A stretch of 64,000 nt of DNA from Bdellovibrio sp. (GTDB taxonomy: Bacteria > Bdellovibrionota > Bdellovibrionia > Bdellovibrionales > Bdellovibrionaceae): contig JAKFCY010000002.1 of the NCBI GenBank assembly GCA_036676395.1, positions 1,568,001 to 1,632,000 on the forward strand, read 5' to 3'. Positions 857 to 30,883 of this stretch are shown here, piece after piece. Position 1 is the stretch's first letter. Each line of letters begins with the position of its first letter. The notes beneath the pieces are model-generated. The model saw nothing but the letters and a program-made list of their open reading frames with translations. It had not been told where the DNA came from and made no database searches. The position numbers and the translations under genes were made by a program.

Positions 857-1677
857 AAACTTTTAACCTCGTTCAAATGCTGATCTAAATCTTGGCGAGT
901 TAAATCCACAGCTTTTAACTCTTCATCTGTGATTTCACTTAAAAATTTCAAATGATTTTTAAGCTGTGTACTTACTAATTCTTTTTCTGCTTTTAAAAAC
1001 AAATCGCGGCGTTTTTTCCATGTGATTAATAAACCCATATGGTGTTTCCAAATCGCGATTTTTTCATGATGTCCTGACAATAAAACGTCAGGCACTTTTT
1101 CATTTCCCCACAAGGCAGGCTTTGTGAATTGCGGAGCTTCTAATAAACCATTATGAAATGAATCCGCAATCACCGACTGGTCATGGCCTAATACCCCCGG
1201 AATAAAGCGAGATACACTTTCGGTAAGCGCTAGCGAGGCCAGCTCTCCACCACTTAATACGAAATCACCTAATGAGATTTCTAAATCAATATGGTGATTT
1301 ATAATTCTTTGATCAATGCCACCGTAGCGTCCACTTAATAAAACTAAATGATCATACTTAAGTAATTTATGAATAGTGGCTTGCTCTAATTTTTCTCCTT
1401 GAGGAGATAGGTAAATACGTAATGCCGATTCAGGTTTGTAATCAGCAGATACATATAACTCATTAAAACATTTATCGGCGATCTCGGGGCGTAAAATCAT
1501 GCCATCGCCGCCACCGTAAGCCGTATCGTCGACTGAGTTATGCTTATTGTCTGAATATTTTCGTAAATTAATAATGTTAAACTCTAAAAGTTTTTTATCT
1601 GCTGCTTTTTTTAAAAGCGCATCACTTAAGTAACTTTGAATAAGCTCTGGAAAAAGAGTCAGGTACGTGAATTTCAT
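853..1677 (-). CDS. trmD: tRNA (guanine37-N1)-methyltransferase
   Basis: VDDTAYGGGDGM, YLSPQG, GRYGGIDQR, SLGDFVLSGGE, SGHH motifs. Confidence 0.97.
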   Translation of the reverse strand: MKFTYLTLFPELIQSYLSDALLKKAADKKLLEFNIINLRKYSDNKHNSVDDTAYGGGDGMILRPEIADKCFNELYVSADYKPESALRIYLSPQGEKLEQATIHKLLKYDHLVLLSGRYGGIDQRIINHHIDLEISLGDFVLSGGELASLALTESVSRFIPGVLGHDQSVIADSFHNGLLEAPQFTKPALWGNEKVPDVLLSGHHEKIAIWKHHMGLLITWKKRRDLFLKAEKELVSTQLKNHLKFLSEITDEELKAVDLTRQDLDQHLNEVKSL

Positions 1678-1679
1678 AA

Positions 1680-2195
1680 CTATTGGTTCAGATCCAAAAG
1701 ACCTTCGGGTAGATCCATCTGAATAGTTTTATTTTCGTGATCGATTTCTACAATAAAGGCATCCACAAACGGAATTTCAAACACGTTACCACTTACTGAT
1801 GTCACAACTAATAAGTCTTGCGCGGTGTTTGATGAAAAGCCCGTAATGATGCCGATTTCACCTGCGGTTTTATCAACGACTTTGAATTTTTCGATTTCAG
1901 TTAGAAACATTCCTTCGTCTTCATCTTGAGAGAAGAAAAAGTCAGCGGGTAAATAAATTTGTTTTCCAATCAATGCTTCTGATTGATTACGATCAGTCAC
2001 GCCCTTGAGCTGCACTTTAAGGCCGTCTTTGTGTTCAGCAGCCTTAATGACTTCGTAAGGAGTTTCTTCGATGTAAACTTCGTCAATTAAATCCACCCAG
2101 GAATAATCTTTGGAAAAGAAAATAATAAAGACATCGCCACGTAAACCGTGGGCGTCTTTGATTTTTCCGATGAGGCGCATTTCTTGTTTTTCCAT
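1680..2195 (-). CDS. rimM: 16S rRNA processing protein RimM
   Basis: IGKIKDAHGLRG, DRNQSEAL, EIPFVDAFIVEID motifs. Start moved to ATG 2195 because the longer ORF begins inside a terminator. Confidence 0.93.
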   Translation of the reverse strand: MEKQEMRLIGKIKDAHGLRGDVFIIFFSKDYSWVDLIDEVYIEETPYEVIKAAEHKDGLKVQLKGVTDRNQSEALIGKQIYLPADFFFSQDEDEGMFLTEIEKFKVVDKTAGEIGIITGFSSNTAQDLLVVTSVSGNVFEIPFVDAFIVEIDHENKTIQMDLPEGLLDLNQ

Positions 2196-2221
2196 TGATG
2201 ATTGCTTGTAGCACTTAGGAT

Positions 2222-2251
2222 AAAAAAAAAGGAGAGTTTTCACTCTCCTTT
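2222..2251 (-). terminator. Rho-independent terminator between the KH gene and rimM
   Basis: Minus strand AAAGGAGAG-TGAAAA-CTCTCC followed by a long T run. Confidence 0.75.
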
Positions 2252-2275
2252 TTAAGTACTTTATCTATATTGAAA

Positions 2276-2515
2276 TTATTCAACGATATCTAAGTGATAG
2301 CGTTTGTTTAACTTGGTACCTGCAGCTCTGATGATTGTTCTCATCGCAGCAGCTGTTTTACCCTGTTTACCGATGACTTTTCCAAGATCTTCTTTATCCA
2401 CCTTAAGGGCTAAAAGAGTAGTTTGCTGTCCAGGAATCTCATCAACTTCAACATTTTCAGGCTTATCAACTAAAGACTTCGCCATGTGCTCAACAAGTTC
2501 TTTTAAGTTATCCAT
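2276..2515 (-). CDS. khpA: KH-domain RNA-binding protein (KhpA/YlqC family)
   Basis: DLGKVIGKQGKTAAAMRTII motif; lies between rpsP and rimM; probable start MDNLKEL at 2515. Confidence 0.92.
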   Translation of the reverse strand: MDNLKELVEHMAKSLVDKPENVEVDEIPGQQTTLLALKVDKEDLGKVIGKQGKTAAAMRTIIRAAGTKLNKRYHLDIVE

Positions 2516-2632
2516 GTTCCCCCCAGAAACCATATCCAAGTTTGACAAAATATTTAGCAGACCTCAAGGAATTTCACAGTTCTTTGACCAGAAACGCCCC
2601 ATAACGAGATCTACTCTATATTATTGTTTCAA

Positions 2633-2938
2633 TTACGCTTCTTTTTTAGCGTTCTTGTTTTTTGTTTTAGCTGGAGATTTTTTACGTGCAGGTAAAGTGA
2701 TTCCACCTAATTTAAGAACGTGTCTTGCAGTTTCAGAAGGCTGTGCACCTTTAGTTAACCACTCTTGAGCTTTAGTTGTGTTTAACACAACTTTAGTTTG
2801 CTTACCTTTTGGAGTTGGAATGTATGTTCCTAATACTTCGATAAATTTGCCAGTTACATAACGGCGAGAATCAGCCACTGTGATTCTGTATTTAGGATCA
2901 TGCTTAGCTCCAACGCGTGCTAGACGAATAACAACCAT
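2633..2938 (-). CDS. rpsP: 30S ribosomal protein S16
   Basis: MVVIRLARVG..PKYRITVADSR..GKFIEVLGTY..WLTKGAQPS. Confidence 0.97.
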   Translation of the reverse strand: MVVIRLARVGAKHDPKYRITVADSRRYVTGKFIEVLGTYIPTPKGKQTKVVLNTTKAQEWLTKGAQPSETARHVLKLGGITLPARKKSPAKTKNKNAKKEA

Positions 2939-3039
2939 TTGAAATACCTCTCATATGAAGAAAAAAAAGCTTTCTAGCTTTCTCAAAGACTAAGTTTTTA
3001 TATCTTATATCGCGCAAGATCAAGCGATTAAAACGGAAA

Positions 3040-4407
3040 TCAAAAAGGAAAGCCAGGTCCTTTGCCGCCCATTCCACCGAATGGATTGCCTTTTCCTTTA
3101 CCACCCATGCCCATTTTCATCATTCCACTCATCATTTTTTTCGCTTCTTCGAACTGTTTGACCAGTTTATTCACATCTTGAACTTGGGTTCCTGAGCCAG
3201 AAGCGATTCTTTGACGCCGCGAGCCATTGAGGATTCTGTGATCATTACGCTCCTGAATGGTCATTGAATTGATAATGGATTCGATTTTTTTGATTTCAGT
3301 ATCTGGTGGGGTCATGTTTTTCATCTGTTTAGAGATCTCGCCCATACCGGGTAGAAATTTCAACATACTTTCAAAACCGCCCAGTTTTTTTAGCTGCTGA
3401 ATCTGCGCCAGGAAGTCTTCTAACGTGAATTCATTATTCATCATACGTTTAGCAGAACGTTCAGCTTCTTTCGTATCTATCACGTCTTGAGCGCGCTCTA
3501 CCAATGATAGAACATCACCCATATCTAGAATTCTTCCAGCCAAACGATCTGGATGAAACACTTCTAATGCAGAAACCTTTTCGCCAACACCTAGAAATTT
3601 AATTGGAATACCCGTTACTTCACGAATAGATAAAGCAGCACCACCGCGCGCATCGCCGTCTACTTTTGTTAAAACTAAACCTGTTAAGTTTAATTTTTGG
3701 TGAAATGTTTCTGCAACATTCACAGATTGCTGACCTAACATCGCATCAGCGACTAATAAAATTTCAGTCGGCGTGATGACTTTCTTAAGATCAGATAATT
3801 CGTTCATCAACTCTTCGTCAATTTGTAAACGCCCCGCTGTATCGACTAATAAGACGTCGATCAGTTCATCTTCAGCCCATTTGATGGCGTTTGTTAAAAT
3901 ATCAGCAGGCTTATCGCCTACTTTAGATGGGTAACAAGAAAAGTTATTTTGTTTTGCTAAAGTTTGTAATTGGTCAATGGCTGCCGGGCGGTAAACGTCG
4001 ACAGGAACAAAACCTACTTTTTTTCCTAGTTTCTGGCGAATATACAAACCTAGTTTTGCAGTGGACGTAGTTTTACCTGCCCCTTGCAGGCCTACCATCA
4101 TAATCACTGATAGTTTTTCGCGAACGTTGATATCAACTTTTTCGCCACCTAATGTTTGCACCAATTCGTCATGGACGATTTTTGTAAACATTTGGCCTGG
4201 GTTTACGTTAGCAATAACTTCAGCACCCAAGGCTTTAGCTTTCACACGGTCGATAAAGTTTTTTACGACTTTAAAATGAACGTCAGCTTCTAATAAACTT
4301 AGACGAATTTCTTTAATTGCTTCTTCGACATTAGTCTCAGAGATCTTGTGCTGACCTTTGAGTTTTTTCATTGAACCTAAAATTTTATCTGATAAGCCTT
4401 CAAACAT
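3040..4407 (-). CDS. ffh: Signal recognition particle protein Ffh
   Basis: GLQGAGKTT, DTAGR, TKVDGDARGG, M-domain SRRQRIASGSG. Confidence 0.98.
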   Translation of the reverse strand: MFEGLSDKILGSMKKLKGQHKISETNVEEAIKEIRLSLLEADVHFKVVKNFIDRVKAKALGAEVIANVNPGQMFTKIVHDELVQTLGGEKVDINVREKLSVIMMVGLQGAGKTTSTAKLGLYIRQKLGKKVGFVPVDVYRPAAIDQLQTLAKQNNFSCYPSKVGDKPADILTNAIKWAEDELIDVLLVDTAGRLQIDEELMNELSDLKKVITPTEILLVADAMLGQQSVNVAETFHQKLNLTGLVLTKVDGDARGGAALSIREVTGIPIKFLGVGEKVSALEVFHPDRLAGRILDMGDVLSLVERAQDVIDTKEAERSAKRMMNNEFTLEDFLAQIQQLKKLGGFESMLKFLPGMGEISKQMKNMTPPDTEIKKIESIINSMTIQERNDHRILNGSRRQRIASGSGTQVQDVNKLVKQFEEAKKMMSGMMKMGMGGKGKGNPFGGMGGKGPGFPF

Positions 4408-4410
4408 AGT

Positions 4411-5205
4411 CTACCACCGTGCAAATGATCCCTTTAAAAGGGAATATATCGCCATTAAATAAGTTACGCCCGTAGCTAATAAACACACAACAACAGTTGT
4501 CATAAGATCAACATCACTTACGCCAACCATCGAATAGCGATAGCCATTTATTAAATAAAACACCGGATTTAAGTGACACACCTTTTGCCAAAATGGATGT
4601 AACCCTTGAATCGTCATGAACACTCCGCCTAAATATGTCAGCGGAATTAAAATAAACGTTGAAAATGCACTTAACTGATCGAATGTTTTTGCAATGAAGG
4701 CGATAAAAATTCCGCAGAACGAAAAGATCAATCCGCAAAGAATTGTGAACATCACAAAAAGCAAAGGATGTTTGATCGGCAATAATTCGCCGACCATAAA
4801 ATAATGGAAAATCATTCCAACAGCACCCGTTATAAAAGCAACAACCGAACCACGAATAATTCCGCCAATACCCATAGCCCAAATGATTTGATGATTAGAA
4901 ATCGGAGCTACGCGAATATCTTCAAGATCTCCTGAGAATTTTGACGTTACAATTGAAGATGATGAATTTTGGAATGAGTTATTAATTAAACCCATAATCA
5001 TCAGGCCCGGAATCAAAAATGTAATATAGGGTAAACCATTCGGAAGGTTTACTTGTGAACCCAATGACACACCAAAGATCAATAAATACAAACTAGAGCT
5101 TACGATCGGGCTTACTACAGTTTGAATCATCACTTTCATGAAACGTTTAATTTCACGGCGGATTAAAGTTAAAAATGGAATCCAGTTATTAATTGTTTTT
5201 TCCAT
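4411..5205 (-). CDS. ABC-2 type transporter permease (YadH-like)
   Basis: REIKRF, FLIPGL, LGGVF, NPVFYLINGYRY; multiple TM segments. Confidence 0.9.
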   Translation of the reverse strand: MEKTINNWIPFLTLIRREIKRFMKVMIQTVVSPIVSSSLYLLIFGVSLGSQVNLPNGLPYITFLIPGLMIMGLINNSFQNSSSSIVTSKFSGDLEDIRVAPISNHQIIWAMGIGGIIRGSVVAFITGAVGMIFHYFMVGELLPIKHPLLFVMFTILCGLIFSFCGIFIAFIAKTFDQLSAFSTFILIPLTYLGGVFMTIQGLHPFWQKVCHLNPVFYLINGYRYSMVGVSDVDLMTTVVVCLLATGVTYLMAIYSLLKGSFARW

Positions 5206-5206
5206 G

Positions 5207-6076
5207 CTATTGGTTCACTACTTTCGTAAAGGCTTCTTCTAACTTACCTTCAGTCATTTGAATATCGGCCACATCGGCTATAGAAATCTTATGTTGCACA
5301 AGCACGATATTTAAACTTTCAGCTGCAGAAGTTAGAATTTCTTTAACATCACCATTTGTCATTTTGATATGAATTTTTTTAGTCGAATATTTAGCAATGA
5401 CTTCTTTCGGGCTTCCGCAGTAGTTCACTTCGCCTTTGTTGATAATCGCAATGCGGTTACAAAGATTTTCGGCTTCTTCTAAGTAATGGGTCGTAAGCAA
5501 GATCGACATGCCAGCTTTTTGTAATTCTGCTACAAACTTCCATAATGATTCACGTAATTCAACGTCTACACCTGCTGTCGGTTCATCAAGTAGTAATAAC
5601 TTTGGTGAATGAACTAAAGCTTTTGCAATCATCAAACGGCGTTTCATTCCGCCTGAGAGTTGTTTGACTTTCTTGTGGGCATGGGGTTTTAACGCCAGAC
5701 GATCTAATAAAAATTGAATACGATCACCGTTATTCAGAATGCCGTAATAACCTGATTGAAATTCTAAAATTTCAGTCACATCGAAATAACCTGTGTTGAT
5801 CACTTCTTGGTGAACGACGCCAACGTTTTGTTTAATTGCACGGGCGTTGTGAACTACATCAAGGCCAAAAACATTTAATTCACCTGAAGTAGGTTTTTCT
5901 AAAGTTGTAATTGTAGAAATTAAAGTGGTTTTTCCTGCGCCGTTTGGCCCAAGTAAACCAAAAATCTCGCCTTCGTTAATATCAAAACTTACACCTTTTA
6001 AAGCATGCACTGATCGAGATGCATCTTTGGCATCGGTATAGGTTTTTTTAAGGTTTTTAACTTCTAAAGCTTTCAT
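5207..6076 (-). CDS. ABC transporter ATP-binding protein (YadG-like)
   Basis: GPNGAGKTT, LSGGMKRR, LLLDEPTAGVD. Confidence 0.93.
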   Translation of the reverse strand: MKALEVKNLKKTYTDAKDASRSVHALKGVSFDINEGEIFGLLGPNGAGKTTLISTITTLEKPTSGELNVFGLDVVHNARAIKQNVGVVHQEVINTGYFDVTEILEFQSGYYGILNNGDRIQFLLDRLALKPHAHKKVKQLSGGMKRRLMIAKALVHSPKLLLLDEPTAGVDVELRESLWKFVAELQKAGMSILLTTHYLEEAENLCNRIAIINKGEVNYCGSPKEVIAKYSTKKIHIKMTNGDVKEILTSAAESLNIVLVQHKISIADVADIQMTEGKLEEAFTKVVNQ

Positions 6077-7683
6077 TATCTGGCTCTCGAAATCGAAGTC
6101 GCAAATTCGACATCTGGGTTTTCTTTTTTAGCCCAGTTCAAATCCCACTCTTGGTTTAATAATAAGACCGGTTGATCAATCATGTCTCTGAATAGAGTAA
6201 AATTACCTTTTAACTCAGCAACGGGTTTACCGTCTTGAGTTCTTGGCCAACGGGCTACCGTGAATGGCAAGCGGTTCAATTTTACTTCTAAGTTGTATTC
6301 ATCCATTAATCTGTGCACTAAAACTTCAAACTGTAACTCACCGACCGCGCCGATTAAATATTCTTGCGGGCCGTAAACTGGATCAATAAATAATTGAATC
6401 GCGCCTTCTTCAGATAAATGATTTAAGGCTTGTTGTAGTTTTGTTCTGCGAAGTGCATCTTTTACAGTTAATTTTGCAAATAACTCTGGCGCAAATTTTG
6501 GAATATCCTCAAAACGAACTTTACCGTTTGCTGAAATGCTATCGCCGATCGCAAAGTTTCCGGTATCGCCGACACCCACGATATCACCAGCATAAGCGAC
6601 ATCGACAGTTTCTTTATCAGCAGCTACGAACTGGCTTGAATAAGACAAACGTAATTCACGCTGTAAGCGCGCGTGGTTTACTTTCATACCACGTTCAAAT
6701 TTGCCTGAGCAAATGCGAACGAAGGCAATACGGTCGCGGTGGCGCTTATCCATGTTGGCTTGAATTTTAAATACAAAGCCTGAAAAATTGTCTGACAATG
6801 GATCAACTTCACCCACTGATTTGGACGGACGTGCTTTTGGACCGGGTGCAAATTCTGTAAAGAATTTTAAGAAAGTATCCACACCGAAGTTTTGCTTTGC
6901 CGAACCAAATGTAACCGGAGAAATTTTTCCGGTTAAAAATTCATTCACATCAAATGGTGGAAGAGCTGATTCAATTAATTCTAATTCATCACGCACTTGT
7001 GCCGCAGTTTCTGCATCTAAGTATTTATCTAAGATTGGGTCTTGCGGGCCAGATAGGTCATGCTCAGTGTATTCATCACCTTCACGGCGCTGATCGTAGA
7101 AATACACTTTTTTATTTAAACGATTGTAAATCCCTTTAAAACGCTGGCCGATGCCTAACGGCCAAGTCACTGGGTAACATTGCATATTTAGCGTACGTTC
7201 GATTTCGTCGATCAAAGTAAGTGGATCTTTTCCTTCACGATCTAGTTTGTTTACGAAGGTAAAAATTGGAATATCACGCAGACGACAAACATCATAAAGT
7301 TTTTTCGTACGATCTTCGACCCCTTTGGCTACGTCAATTAACATACATGCAGATTCAACGGCCATTAATACACGGTAGGTATCTTCAGAGAAATCTTTAT
7401 GGCCGGGAGTATCTAAAAGGTTAACTCGTAAATCAGCGTAATCAAAAGTCATTACCGATGAAGTAATCGAAATACCTTTTTGTTTTTCTAGCTCCATCCA
7501 ATCTGATGTGGCTGACTTTGTTCCAGACTTACCTTTTACCTCGCCAGTTTCGTGGATTACCCCACCGTGGTATAAAAGTTTTTCGGTCAACGTGGTTTTA
7601 CCCGCATCTGGATGTGAAATAATGGCAAACGTACGACGACGTAGAATCTCTTTTTGGTCTTGAACTGATAATGACATAAGCAA
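6076..7683 (-). CDS. prfC: Peptide chain release factor 3
   Basis: RRTFAIISHPDAGKTTLTEK, SDWM, DTPGH, NKLDR, FKIQANMD. Confidence 0.98.
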   Translation of the reverse strand: MLMSLSVQDQKEILRRRTFAIISHPDAGKTTLTEKLLYHGGVIHETGEVKGKSGTKSATSDWMELEKQKGISITSSVMTFDYADLRVNLLDTPGHKDFSEDTYRVLMAVESACMLIDVAKGVEDRTKKLYDVCRLRDIPIFTFVNKLDREGKDPLTLIDEIERTLNMQCYPVTWPLGIGQRFKGIYNRLNKKVYFYDQRREGDEYTEHDLSGPQDPILDKYLDAETAAQVRDELELIESALPPFDVNEFLTGKISPVTFGSAKQNFGVDTFLKFFTEFAPGPKARPSKSVGEVDPLSDNFSGFVFKIQANMDKRHRDRIAFVRICSGKFERGMKVNHARLQRELRLSYSSQFVAADKETVDVAYAGDIVGVGDTGNFAIGDSISANGKVRFEDIPKFAPELFAKLTVKDALRRTKLQQALNHLSEEGAIQLFIDPVYGPQEYLIGAVGELQFEVLVHRLMDEYNLEVKLNRLPFTVARWPRTQDGKPVAELKGNFTLFRDMIDQPVLLLNQEWDLNWAKKENPDVEFATSISRAR

Positions 7684-25359: not shown

Positions 25360-26214
25360 TCAGAGCCGCTTAGGAAAATACCCAAACGGAGCCTGAACAC
25401 TTTCATCATGCGAAGGCAGAATGATCACCTTAGGATTGGCTTCTTGAAAAGAATGAAGCTTTTGAATTTGTTCGAGCACTTTATCAGCATCAAGATCAAC
25501 TAACTTTTTTGACAACCAGAATTTGCCTAACTTTAAATCAATACCTTTTTTCTTCCATACCGTGTCGCCGATAAGAAAAAATTTATTTCCACGGTCTGTG
25601 TTTACAAATATTCCGACTGAGCCTGGCGTATGACCTCTTAATGGAACGACCACAATAGATTGATCATTATATATATCTAAACTTTCAGAAAAACCCATGT
25701 ACGGTGTCTTAGTAAACGTGTAAGGCCGCCATTTAATATTTGGGTTTGAGACTTGTGACTTTAAGACTGCCGGCGGTGTGCCTACATCTTTAAAGGCGAT
25801 CTCTTCTGAAAGAGCCCAGATATCTTTATCTAAAAAATCAACTAACCCACTGACATGATCAAAATGAAGATGAGTGATAAGGATGAAGCTAAAATCTATT
25901 TTTTCTTTGGCTAATTGCGCTTTTGCCGTTTCAGATTTTTTATAAGCAAAAGCCGGCCTGTGAAAAAAAGAAATATCCTGGAATTGGTCATCAATTTTTT
26001 CGCCAAGTCCTGTGTCGACTAAGATATTTCCTTTAGGATGTTCGACAAGAAAAGCTGAATGATTTACTTCAATTTTTTTCCATGCCCCACCTTCAAGAGC
26101 CAAGCTTTCATAAGTATGGGCCGTACCCGTTTTGATAATGCTGAGTTTGACTTTGTCTGCAGCATGCACGATAGAAGCAAAACTTAAAATCAAACCTAAG
26201 GTCATAATCTTCAT
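25360..26214 (-). CDS. Secreted MBL-fold hydrolase (AHL-lactonase-like family)
   Basis: THLHFDH, GHTPG, LIGD, PSHD; signal peptide from ATG 26214. Confidence 0.88.
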   Translation of the reverse strand: MKIMTLGLILSFASIVHAADKVKLSIIKTGTAHTYESLALEGGAWKKIEVNHSAFLVEHPKGNILVDTGLGEKIDDQFQDISFFHRPAFAYKKSETAKAQLAKEKIDFSFILITHLHFDHVSGLVDFLDKDIWALSEEIAFKDVGTPPAVLKSQVSNPNIKWRPYTFTKTPYMGFSESLDIYNDQSIVVVPLRGHTPGSVGIFVNTDRGNKFFLIGDTVWKKKGIDLKLGKFWLSKKLVDLDADKVLEQIQKLHSFQEANPKVIILPSHDESVQAPFGYFPKRL

Positions 26215-26236
26215 AAAACCATCCTTTGTTATAGAA

Positions 26237-26268
26237 ATTGTAAACCGTTGGGTATACAACATGGTCAA
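26237..26268 (-). promoter_or_regulatory. MerR-type promoter/operator for the MBL hydrolase
   Basis: TTGACC-N20-TACAAT with an imperfect dyad (GTTG...CAAC) in the long spacer, typical of MerR-activated promoters. Confidence 0.7.
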
Positions 26269-27974: not shown

Positions 27975-28154
27975 TTGATATTGGGGCAATTTAGTCGGCC
28001 TCTCGATTTCAAGAAAAATTTAAAACTTTCTCGATCTAATACGTGTCAACTTAACGCCAGCGTTTCATTTGTAAATAAATTGTTCTTTATATTTACATAA
28101 ATACCCGTTTTAAATAACCTAAACGGGCGAATCAAACGCTAAAGGGGTTATGGC

Positions 28155-28904
28155 ATGTTTAATGAGACCGTGGATCTACAGCTCGTACTTTGTCCCGTTC
28201 GCGAACCAGAATCGAAATATATTGAATTATATAACAAAATCTATAAGTGCTGGAATAGCGTATGGACTTCGGCTTATACCGAAGTGAATTATCAGTCAGA
28301 CCACGAATCTTTGAAGTCTGATAGCTTTACCCGTCAGGATTTTGTGGCGGCTATTTTTCATAAACAGGAGTGCATTGCTTTTATTTTATTTCGTCAGGTG
28401 GATGCGAATTTAATATCTACTAAAGATGATTCGTTTTTTGCCCAATGGAGTGAAATTCATCTTAAGTCTGTTGCAAAAATAGGTCAGCAGTTGTTGATTT
28501 GTGGAAACTTGGGAATTCATCCGACGTTTCGTCAAAAGACTCTGGGAGTTTCTCTAAAAGAAATTATGGGAGGCTTAATTTCAGAAATCACATTACAATC
28601 AAATGTCAATGCAACCCTTGCGACCCCCCGCCGCGATCGTAACGTACACGGCGCCGCCTATCAATGGGGAGCTGCTCCGATAGCCCAGGATATTTCTTGG
28701 GGCTGCGGAATTCAAATCGACTTAATATCTTTTCATAAGGCAAATCTATTAAAACACCGCAATCACGCATTACGTCCGCTCATAGATAAGCTATGGCAAA
28801 ATAAAATTGTTGTAGAAAACAAAGCTCAAGAGACGCTTCAACAATTCAAGCACACTAGCCCTTATAGTCTGCAAAATTTAAAGCCAAACAAAAAGACAGG
28901 TTAA
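28155..28904 (+). CDS. Hypothetical protein, probable GNAT-like fold
   Basis: 249 aa; LICGNLGIHPTFRQKTLG resembles GNAT motif A; co-oriented with the desaturase (7-bp gap). Confidence 0.6.
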   Translation: MFNETVDLQLVLCPVREPESKYIELYNKIYKCWNSVWTSAYTEVNYQSDHESLKSDSFTRQDFVAAIFHKQECIAFILFRQVDANLISTKDDSFFAQWSEIHLKSVAKIGQQLLICGNLGIHPTFRQKTLGVSLKEIMGGLISEITLQSNVNATLATPRRDRNVHGAAYQWGAAPIAQDISWGCGIQIDLISFHKANLLKHRNHALRPLIDKLWQNKIVVENKAQETLQQFKHTSPYSLQNLKPNKKTG

Positions 28905-28911
28905 AAATTTT

Positions 28912-29847
28912 GTGACAAAGATTACTTATAAACATATTCGAAAAAGCCTAAACTTTGATTTTCAGCCACAATTTTTTATAAGACAGGTTGGAACTGACTT
29001 ACTTTTACTTGCAACGATGTTTGCGTTGTTTCAAACAACATTTGCCGTGATTAATGTTTTTCTAATTCCGGCGTTTATGTTTCGCCAATTTTCGATTTTA
29101 CATGAAGCCGTGCACGGCTTAGCACATCCAAATTCTAAAATTAATGATGCGCTTGGCGTAATTTCTGGTGCTTTTTGCCTAACACCTTATGCCACCTGGA
29201 AAGCAGCTCATCTAAAACACCACTACTGGACAGGCAATCTTAATCAGGATCCAACTTTTGCCATTTTGAAACAATATGAACAATTCTCGGCACTTAAAAA
29301 AAATCTTATCGAATTTACTTGGCGTAAAGGCCTTCCGTTACTTGGTTTTTTACAGCATTTAGGTTTTTGGGTTTTTACATTTAAAAATACGGCGACGTTT
29401 AAAAATGTTTTTAGCTCAGTGATGGTTATAGCTTTATATGCTGCAGTTTTGTCTCAAACCAATCTAGCAAACGCAGTTATTAGTATTATTGGAATCTGCC
29501 TTTATTTTCGTGCTTATGAAGAAATGATCGTGCCCCAACATGTAGGAATGTATTCAGATGATGAAATAGAACACCACCCATCAGCCTGGGATCAGCAAGA
29601 GATTACCCGTTCATGGCCTTTAGCCTCGGGATTAGAAAGATATGTCGTCTTAAATATGAATTATCATACCGAACATCATCTATTTCCAGACCTGCCATGG
29701 CACCAACTGGATAATGCCCATCAACTTTTGTTGCAAGAAAATGAACCCTTAAATTTGATTTCGTTAAAATGGATGAGCGAACAACGCCAAAGACCTTTTG
29801 CCGAAGTTATTATCCCGATACCTAGCCGCAAGAAAAATGCAGCTTAA
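28912..29847 (+). CDS. Membrane fatty-acid desaturase family protein
   Basis: His boxes HEAVH, HLKHH, HTEHHLFP; TM segments. Confidence 0.9.
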   Translation: MTKITYKHIRKSLNFDFQPQFFIRQVGTDLLLLATMFALFQTTFAVINVFLIPAFMFRQFSILHEAVHGLAHPNSKINDALGVISGAFCLTPYATWKAAHLKHHYWTGNLNQDPTFAILKQYEQFSALKKNLIEFTWRKGLPLLGFLQHLGFWVFTFKNTATFKNVFSSVMVIALYAAVLSQTNLANAVISIIGICLYFRAYEEMIVPQHVGMYSDDEIEHHPSAWDQQEITRSWPLASGLERYVVLNMNYHTEHHLFPDLPWHQLDNAHQLLLQENEPLNLISLKWMSEQRQRPFAEVIIPIPSRKKNAA

Positions 29848-29849
29848 TA

Positions 29850-30590
29850 CTAAATCATAGCCAGCTTATCCACTTCGGCATCGTAACCTAATACTGTGCC
29901 ACGTAATGAGAATACAAAGCCTTTAACTTCGTTAGAGCCTTCTTCAAAAAGTGGACAGGCAAAACCTGGTTCTACAAGAACTGATGAACATTTAAAACCG
30001 ATAGAATCATCGTTATAAATTTCTTTAAGAATATGACGAGATGAATTAATTTGGGTTGCTGTTTTCATTCTACCCTCCATCATCTGCTGAGCCGCTTCTA
30101 TTAAAGCGTTCATCACAAAAGAAGGTCGCTCCCAAAGCAGGTACCATTCAAGAGTCAGTAAATCTAAAAGCGAATAAGATGAAATTTTAAAGAAATTAAA
30201 CGTTCTAAAAAGCTGAATGCTTTCTGAACTGTATATTTCAATAACGTCATCTTTTTGCACCTTATTCCAAAACTCAGTATCGCGCAGCTCTAAGCCATAC
30301 ATTTTGATGGCTGGCTCGATATAACAGCGTTCACGGTGTTCTGACGAAGGCTGTTCAACTTGTGTAGACATTAATACAACGCTTAAAGCATTTTGCAGCT
30401 GTTTAGCTATGAATTCTTTTTTTTCAAGAGGCATAGTTCTGAAAGCGGCTATAGATTTTGGTGAATATGGTCTGCAAGCATAACCTTGAAGTCTGACAAT
30501 TTGGGCTAATCTTTGTAGGTCTGCTATCAACGACAGTTCTAAGGGAGTAAGGCGCGTGTCTAATGCAAGATTCGAAGCATCAATACTCAT
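29850..30590 (-). CDS. Hypothetical protein, possible PAS-like domain
   Basis: DVIEIYSSESIQLFRTFNFFKISSYSLLDLL..W resembles a PAS N-terminal pattern; coupled to the XRE gene (ATGA overlap). Confidence 0.6.
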   Translation of the reverse strand: MSIDASNLALDTRLTPLELSLIADLQRLAQIVRLQGYACRPYSPKSIAAFRTMPLEKKEFIAKQLQNALSVVLMSTQVEQPSSEHRERCYIEPAIKMYGLELRDTEFWNKVQKDDVIEIYSSESIQLFRTFNFFKISSYSLLDLLTLEWYLLWERPSFVMNALIEAAQQMMEGRMKTATQINSSRHILKEIYNDDSIGFKCSSVLVEPGFACPLFEEGSNEVKGFVFSLRGTVLGYDAEVDKLAMI

Positions 30591-30883
30591 ACTGACCTTT
30601 TAACCGACTTAGATTTCTTATAAACTTTGGCGGTGATTATATTTTTTGAATCTTCAACCATGACCTTAACCAGCTTGTCGCGGCTTAGATTCAGCACGTC
30701 AATGAGTTTTTCAAAACAGTGATTTGGGGGGGCGCATAGACCGCGCTCCCAGTTAGAGATAAATTGCACGTGAACATTGCCTAGCATATCTGCGAGTTCA
30801 CTTTGGGTTAAATCTAACCCGAGACGTTTTTGCTTCAAATATTGGCCTAAATTTAAAAATTCTGACATACTTACCTTATACAA
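30587..30883 (-). CDS. XRE/Cro-family HTH regulator
   Basis: LGQYLKQKR..LTQSELADMLG..QFISNWERG..P; start may be 30868. Confidence 0.92.
   Translation of the reverse strand: MYKVSMSEFLNLGQYLKQKRLGLDLTQSELADMLGNVHVQFISNWERGLCAPPNHCFEKLIDVLNLSRDKLVKVMVEDSKNIITAKVYKKSKSVKRSV

Follow-up and report, generated by a model that had tools for sequence, protein, structure and literature searches.

What do two short gene pairs that run into each other in a Bdellovibrio genome make and sense, and do they belong together? The question is raised by positions 28155 to 30883 of a 64,000-nucleotide stretch of Bdellovibrio sp. DNA (assembly GCA_036676395.1, contig JAKFCY010000002.1, positions 1,568,001 to 1,632,000 of the forward strand), the whole of which we call the window. 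Four genes, here named A to D, lie there in two convergent pairs. An earlier note, made from the letters of this DNA, had read them as an analogue of LuxI/LuxR quorum sensing that makes an unsaturated N-acyl molecule. Our analysis supports this in part and leads to a broader reading, to which we give a probability of roughly one half: A and B are a small-molecule synthase/tailoring pair and C and D the cognate PAS-like sensor and XRE-family regulator, the four forming one functional module. The features concerned are as follows.

28155-28904, forward strand: gene A, 249 amino acids (aa), GNAT-fold protein of LuxI/FeeM-like architecture, putative N-acyl (signal) synthase
28912-29847, forward strand: gene B, 311 aa, membrane di-iron enzyme of the fatty-acid-desaturase family, putative tailoring oxidase
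29850-30590, reverse strand: gene C, 246 aa, N-terminal helical part and C-terminal PAS-like domain, putative ligand sensor
30587-30883, reverse strand: gene D, 98 aa, XRE-family helix-turn-helix (HTH) protein; 4-base overlap with the start of C
29848-29849, no strand: the 2 bases that separate the stop codons of the convergent genes B and C
28509-28547, forward strand: motif-A-like loop of A, LGIHPTFRQKTLG, residues 119-131
29886-30257, reverse strand: PAS-like domain of C, about residues 112-235
28071-28096, forward strand: candidate operator, inverted repeat GTAAATA-N12-TATTTAC

All four genes are recovered at these coordinates in the list of open reading frames (ORFs) of the window, and the raw sequence gives the junctions. 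The stop codon of A is separated from the GTG start of B by a 7-base spacer, D and C share the four bases ATGA, and the stop of B (TAA) lies 2 bases from that of C, which reads CTA on the forward strand. Base composition is flat across the four-gene region. The two convergent bicistrons with 2 bp between their stops, as first described, are thus borne out, and the genes are confirmed as real, with the coordinates and description of the locus correct.

That the four belong together is best seen across the phylum. In a sample of 401 Bdellovibrionota genomes from 203 genera, a profile of A matches 118 genomes in 64 genera and a profile of C matches 133 genomes in 69 genera. At least 60 of the 129 A places, in 56 genomes, have a C place within 1.9 kb among the C matches listed (40 pairs convergent, 11 co-directional and 9 divergent), a lower bound given that 94 further C matches lie outside that list and up to six candidates were scored per genome. 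We then scored the ORFs of 129 loci with profiles of A, B, C, D and the heme-oxygenase-like protein described below. These loci comprise the surroundings of 127 A places in other genomes (about 4.5 kb to either side), a 13-kb stretch around the second A place of the genome studied here (G000) and the window itself. In two of them the ORF caller gave no A ORF, and the counts that follow are over the remaining 127, within 3 kb of A. C is found near A in 89 loci, a D-type XRE gene in 65, C and D together in 61, and all four components in 60. The exact order of the window, with A and B forward and C and D reverse (A>B>C<D<), occurs in 5 of the 127. A pattern search, which reached only eight close relatives, found this order in all named relatives with a long enough contig, including a complete RefSeq Bdellovibrio chromosome. 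Since the same families neighbour each other in dozens of genomes, the arrangement is not due to chance; the linkage of these gene families is far beyond it, and their co-occurrence in Bdellovibrionota, which the earlier note had proposed as a check, is established.

What A might do is indicated mainly by its fold. The AlphaFold2 model, built on an alignment of 25 relatives, has a predicted local distance difference test score (pLDDT) of 85.9 and a predicted template modelling score (pTM) of 0.82. It shows a mixed alpha/beta core with the motif-A loop joining strand 4 to helix 3, as in GNATs, and the extended N- and C-terminal elements of the GNAT-derived fold of acyl-homoserine lactone (AHL) synthases; the fold of FeeM and other N-acyl amino acid synthases is likewise matched by the model. 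The stretch LGIHPTFRQKTLG lies between a strand at residues 112-121 and a helix at 134-148, at the strand-4/helix-3 loop, where GNAT motif A sits; the motif-A-like stretch claimed for A from its letters thus finds its place in the modelled structure. Within this loop, conservation reaches 90% or more at R126 and G131, and R126 is nearly invariant family-wide. Residues W33, W37, D56, R60, D62, D92, R126, R159 and D161 are invariant in the alignment of 25 relatives.

In a Foldseek search of the PDB, EsaI, FeeM, RpaI and LasI ranked first or close to first (E 3.5e-6 to 2.5e-4), as the earlier note had predicted, and re-ranking of the best 1000 Foldseek matches brought in BjaI with a score of 13.3. 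Ordinary N-acetyltransferases score equally in the re-ranking (SbzI 13.7, ElaA 13.1, arylalkylamine N-acetyltransferases 12.6-12.9). Therefore, the GNAT fold of the model is secure, while the LuxI/FeeM subclass is only suggested, by the order of the Foldseek matches and by the longer aligned spans. These spans (VIA) are longest for the AHL synthases and FeeM, at 175-192 residues of A and reaching to about model residue 224, as against 135-172 residues, ending near residue 195, for generic GNATs.

Sequence comparison places A in none of the families that it resembles in fold. Model searches found no Pfam or NCBIfam family for A, and sequence and profile searches of the PDB with the A alignments returned noise only. 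The AHL synthase model PF00765 (Autoind_synth) has no match to A at E<=1 and none in the 25 family members at E<=10; in 21 relatives it is also without a match, which is uninformative, as the control genomes were equally silent. The FeeM model PF21926 and PF13444 (Acetyltransf_5) each match one of the 25 members faintly (E 0.19 and 0.11, respectively), and neither matches the A of the window. With faint matches in one or two of 25 members only, membership of A by sequence in the LuxI, FeeM or OlsB-type families is ruled out. The family that A does belong to is large: a profile search of 1.84 billion representatives gave 893 relatives, 700 of them at E<=1e-10, and repeating the search with a broader alignment added little.

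The second gene of the left pair had been described as a His-box desaturase, and this description holds. B matches PF00487 (FA_desaturase) at 1.2e-30 and 107.6 bits, above the cut-off of 29.7, and carries three His boxes (HEAVH at residue 64, HLKHH at 100 and HTEHH at 252); its orthologue in the RefSeq genome is labelled 'fatty acid desaturase family protein'. The best NCBIfam models are the arginine hydroxylase GntB (7.6e-15) and DesA (2.1e-12). Because all NCBIfam scores, including these two, are far below the cut-offs, B receives neither an equivalog-level assignment nor a fixed substrate.

In the phylum at large, a desaturase is not the usual partner of A. A heme-oxygenase-like protein of the PF14518 type accompanies A in 100 of the 127 loci, a desaturase in 29 and both in 13, and a di-iron partner of one kind or the other lies within 3 kb of A in 116. 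On the tree of A, the topology of which does not track taxonomy, the partner type shifts repeatedly, with at least eight changes of the desaturase label forced by well-supported branches. The oxidase is therefore an exchangeable tailoring slot, and, the usual partner being heme-oxygenase-like, the unsaturated N-acyl chemistry first envisaged for the locus becomes one possibility. The nearest solved relative of the heme-oxygenase-like protein of the cassettes is an uncharacterised TENA/THI-4-like structure (3dde, 6.8e-11). In two of the proteins found with the A profile, P0157 (452 aa) and P0160 (442 aa), the putative synthase and this oxidase are fused, with the A domain N-terminal and the heme-oxygenase-like domain C-terminal. 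In another, P0206 (408 aa), some 160 unassigned residues precede the A domain.

On the right-hand side, C and A share the fate of being labelled 'hypothetical protein' in the RefSeq genome that carries them, and C, too, has no Pfam or NCBIfam family in model searches. The earlier note had seen a PAS-like pattern in C. By sequence this does not hold, as no PAS model matches C or the 28 family members searched at E<=10, but at the level of fold it has support. In the AlphaFold2 model (pLDDT 88.0) the N-terminal part is helical, and the C-terminal half, residues 112-235, is modelled as a PAS-like domain. The Foldseek matches listed for C are PAS- or LOV-containing entries with probabilities of 0.89-1.0, and TM-scores to isolated PAS domains are 0.58-0.65. 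The Z-scores of the fold matches are weak but uniform, three methods give a PAS-like result, and language-model neighbours of C outside its own family carry PAS families, at 0.92-0.93. Among the fold matches are the quorum-sensing receptors VqmA and RpfR. The invariant residues of the C family cluster in the PAS-like domain (E118, Y120, Q126, R129, N132, Y139, S140, D143, E148, W149, W153, R155, H186, K189 and E190). The Foldseek comparison thus gave for A the kind of fold that had been predicted, and for C matches in line with the prediction.

D is the stand-alone XRE HTH protein that it was first taken for, with residues 16-71 of its 98 aa matching PF01381 (HTH_3) at 38.1 bits (cut-off 23). 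XRE proteins of its subfamily, with the consensus ...QFISNWERG..PP, adjoin C in 52 pairs, in which the XRE gene stands upstream of C in 27, downstream in 15, divergent in 7 and convergent in 3; several of these pairs have 4-base overlaps. C also occurs in additional copies. In five complete genomes of one genus (g3; loci L157-L176) there are 20 further copies of C, of which 3 lie beside another pair of A and oxidase, 3 beside an XRE gene only and 14 alone. Three loci that lack a D-type XRE gene have ORFs of about 250 aa adjoining C whose N-termini resemble another type of HTH by eye (L045 6938-7687, L088 2246-3016 and L090 6623-7372). In a further locus (L024 6696-7441) two ORFs, 6696-7049 and 7130-7441, take the place of a single C homologue, possibly through a frameshift, gene breakage or an error of assembly.

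The cassette is also duplicated as a unit. The same genome carries a second copy at 19044-21528 of contig C3 (L029, 5045-7529), which consists of a heme-oxygenase-like gene (PF14518, 8.8e-11), an A' of 244 aa, a C' of 269 aa that is convergent with A' and overlaps its end, and an XRE gene of 93 aa with 60% identity to D. Beside this copy are a conventional GNAT and an FAD oxidoreductase of the DAO family. A contig of a Pseudobdellovibrio metagenome-assembled genome (L022) carries two complete A-B-C-D cassettes in tandem at 1478-7449, with an additional XRE gene on the left. The pairwise distances among A proteins correlate with those among the linked C proteins (Mantel r 0.56, n=89, none of 2000 permutations as high), and a similar correlation is found between A and the oxidase (r 0.52). 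The correlation of A and C shows joint inheritance, not necessarily co-adaptation.

A possible target for the regulator lies in front of A. The inverted repeat GTAAATA-N12-TATTTAC, 26 bases long, stops 58 bases short of the ATG start codon of A and has one match in the window against 0.01 expected. It is kept upstream of the A orthologue in a related genome (G379), and in the Pseudobdellovibrio contig its left half is retained together with a portion of the right. From these patterns in the DNA we infer that the repeat is a candidate operator. A search for inverted repeats upstream of D and of the paralogous XRE gene found none, and a terminator scan found none at the B/C junction (29840-29860). 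Further palindromes lie at 28009-28034 of the window and at L029 4973-5032, and a hairpin-like CCCGTTT-N10-AAACGGG at 28103-28126, between this operator candidate and gene A, is only partly conserved in G379.

These observations can be brought together in a mechanism. A would probably transfer an acyl group from a carrier thioester, either acyl-acyl carrier protein or acyl-coenzyme A (CoA), to an amine substrate. B would oxidise the product of A or its precursor, by desaturation or by hydroxylation, a role that in most relatives would fall to the soluble heme-oxygenase-like di-iron oxidase. The PAS-like pocket of C would recognise the resulting molecule, possibly an acylated amine acting as a diffusible signal, and C, in contact with the translationally coupled D, would control transcription through the binding of DNA by D. 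The promoter of A and B, with its conserved inverted repeat, would probably be among the targets, in which case the module may regulate itself.

Several points weigh against this reading. A is without sequence membership in any synthase family, the Pfam, NCBIfam and PDB profile searches having come back empty or with noise. The inverted repeat is conserved among close relatives only, and a promoter scan, with 8 promoter-like sites against 10.1 expected from shuffled sequences, is not informative. The Mantel correlation can be explained by shared descent alone. No C is found within 3 kb of A in 38 of the 127 loci, and one clade of seven A copies, all from one genus, has neither oxidase nor C. 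In 28 of the C-bearing A loci no D-type XRE gene was detected; some of these have a different HTH-like ORF next to C, others none. Finally, the 14 solitary C copies of genus g3 have no A, oxidase or D-type XRE gene within 3 kb and no recurrent neighbour. Given the C-bearing loci without D and these solo copies, C is not strictly dependent on D or on A, which leaves room for a role other than DNA binding. The solo copies resemble, by analogy, the receptor 'solos' that signal receptors often have.

It could also be that the cassette is regulated biosynthesis and not signalling, with A and its oxidase making an aminolipid or secondary metabolite while C and D sense some other cue, such as oxygen, redox state, prey or nutrients, and switch the operon on. 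This is the main rival, which we consider rather doubtful, although a good deal speaks for it. FeeM is among the top fold matches of A, and such GNATs also make N-acyl amino acids and aminolipids; the OlsB/OlsE pair joins an N-acyltransferase to a hydroxylase of the desaturase family. Oxygen, redox state and light are common cues for PAS domains, most of the fold matches of C are of that kind, and the conserved residues of C are unchanged across copies with different oxidases, which fits a common cue better than diverse ligands. However, the presence of two to several paralogous cassettes per genome, their tandem duplication and the co-diversification of A and C point the other way. Stand-alone copies of C are, moreover, more usual for signal/receptor families than for lipid housekeeping, and no O-acyltransferase or other lipid gene is recurrent beside A. 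That A instead modifies a macromolecule or common metabolite (a protein, transfer RNA or polyamine, or an antibiotic by N-acetylation), its neighbours being functionally unrelated, is improbable. The A-oxidase fusions and the di-iron partner in 116 of the 127 loci tie A to an oxidative small-molecule pathway, C is linked to A in 89 of these loci, and only for AHL synthases does the aligned span reach the C-terminal helices.

Another explanation separates the two gene pairs altogether and makes D and C an independent toxin-antitoxin-like or mobile-element regulator pair that lies by chance beside a biosynthetic operon. XRE proteins of the size of D are common as antitoxins and as phage or defence regulators, D has sub-threshold matches to RstR, DicA, HipB, MqsA and the PADLOC RmrA/HTH models, and the 4-base overlap of D and C would suit such a pair. 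C, however, is PAS-like and not toxin-like and has no PADLOC match; it is linked to A in the same 89 loci, which come from many families of the phylum; the flanks show no recurrent mobile-element genes, and base composition does not change across the region. We thus regard an independent D-C pair as very improbable. A defence-system reading based on PADLOC was set aside, as A, B and C have no match and D matches only generic HTH-bearing models, and a toxin-antitoxin reading of the cassette was likewise considered and set aside.

The synthase/sensor module that we prefer to these alternatives can be extended into a more far-reaching proposal, which we put forward tentatively: that Bdellovibrionota have their own, hitherto unrecognised family of chemical communication systems. 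Multiple paralogous cassettes in a genome would each make a distinct oxidised acyl-amide signal by means of a LuxI-fold synthase and an interchangeable di-iron oxidase, each read by its cognate PAS-like receptor and XRE protein. Solo receptors would eavesdrop on kin, and the whole would coordinate the life cycle of the predator in steps such as attack, growth within the prey or exit.

The module appears to be confined to the four genes. Six flanking genes, encoding a metallo-beta-lactamase (MBL) hydrolase, a MerR protein, a glutathione S-transferase (GST), an SCO4226-like protein, a secreted 237-aa protein and an FMN reductase, showed no recurrence beside A, except for the FMN reductase in 2 loci. 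They were rejected as members on this account, and the module is therefore these four genes. In the window, a gene at 25360-26268 on the reverse strand encodes a 302-aa MBL-fold protein with an apparent N-terminal hydrophobic (signal-like) stretch by eye. Its best NCBIfam models are the AHL lactonases AttM (1.5e-14), AiiA (3.1e-11), AidB and YtnP, with scores far under the cut-offs for quorum-quenching lactonases (54 versus 390 bits). It lies 1.9 kb from A and is not recurrent beside A homologues.

What makes the locus worth pursuing is that a widespread, signal-synthase-shaped family joined to a sensor/regulator pair was not expected in predatory bacteria. To our knowledge, no self-made signal is known in predatory Bdellovibrio-type bacteria, for which the cassette offers a concrete and testable candidate. 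The large, unannotated enzyme family of A (893 representative clusters) has the architecture of a signal synthase and is genetically tied to an oxidase and a sensor/regulator pair, the whole unit having been duplicated and diversified. If our reading is correct, it would add a new pairing of synthase and receptor to bacterial signalling, a new chemistry that combines a GNAT with a di-iron oxidase of the heme-oxygenase-like or desaturase type, and a handle on the regulation of the predator life cycle. As the same architecture is found in a cultured, fully sequenced Bdellovibrio strain, experiments are feasible.

How, then, does the cassette compare with known systems? Full-text literature searches found no paper describing the module. 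A comparative-genomics preprint (10.1101/2020.11.01.364414) reports that predicted acyl-homoserine lactone synthases are absent from Bdellovibrionota genomes. With the LuxI/LuxR systems (EsaI, LasI and TofI, and the CoA-dependent RpaI and BjaI), A has its fold in common, but not the sequence family PF00765. In LuxI-type enzymes the S-adenosylmethionine-binding and catalytic residues of the N-terminal half are Arg, Phe, Trp, two Asp, Arg and Glu. LuxI systems have no counterpart to the di-iron oxidase, which we call an obligatory partner in the cassette and which is sometimes fused to A, and where LuxR joins an autoinducer-binding domain to a GerE HTH, the cassette has a PAS-like protein and a separate XRE protein of the HTH_3 type. 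FeeM-type synthases also share the fold of A, with the faint PF21926 and PF13444 matches in one of 25 members each, and no FeeM-type gene is known to be paired with a PAS-like/XRE unit or with a heme-oxygenase-like oxidase. On the receptor side, the closest parallel is the VqmA-DPO (3,5-dimethylpyrazin-2-ol) system of Vibrio, in which a PAS ligand domain is fused to an HTH. The cassettes instead encode the PAS-like protein and the HTH in separate genes, which occur in either order; the HTH is of the XRE type, C is extended by a helical part at its N-terminus, and A has no relation to the DPO pathway. As to the oxidase, soluble heme-oxygenase-like and membrane desaturase-family di-iron enzymes of the UndA and UndB types can carry out equivalent oxidations of acyl substrates, and the replacement of one oxidase type by the other beside A is reminiscent of them, a likeness of enzyme type.

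The cassette thus stands outside the known systems, because the family models are unmatched, the putative receptor is divided over two genes and differs in type, and a di-iron oxidase is part of the unit. By analogy, it would work most like a LuxI/LuxR or FeeM-type system with the receptor logic of VqmA, while being a member of none of them.

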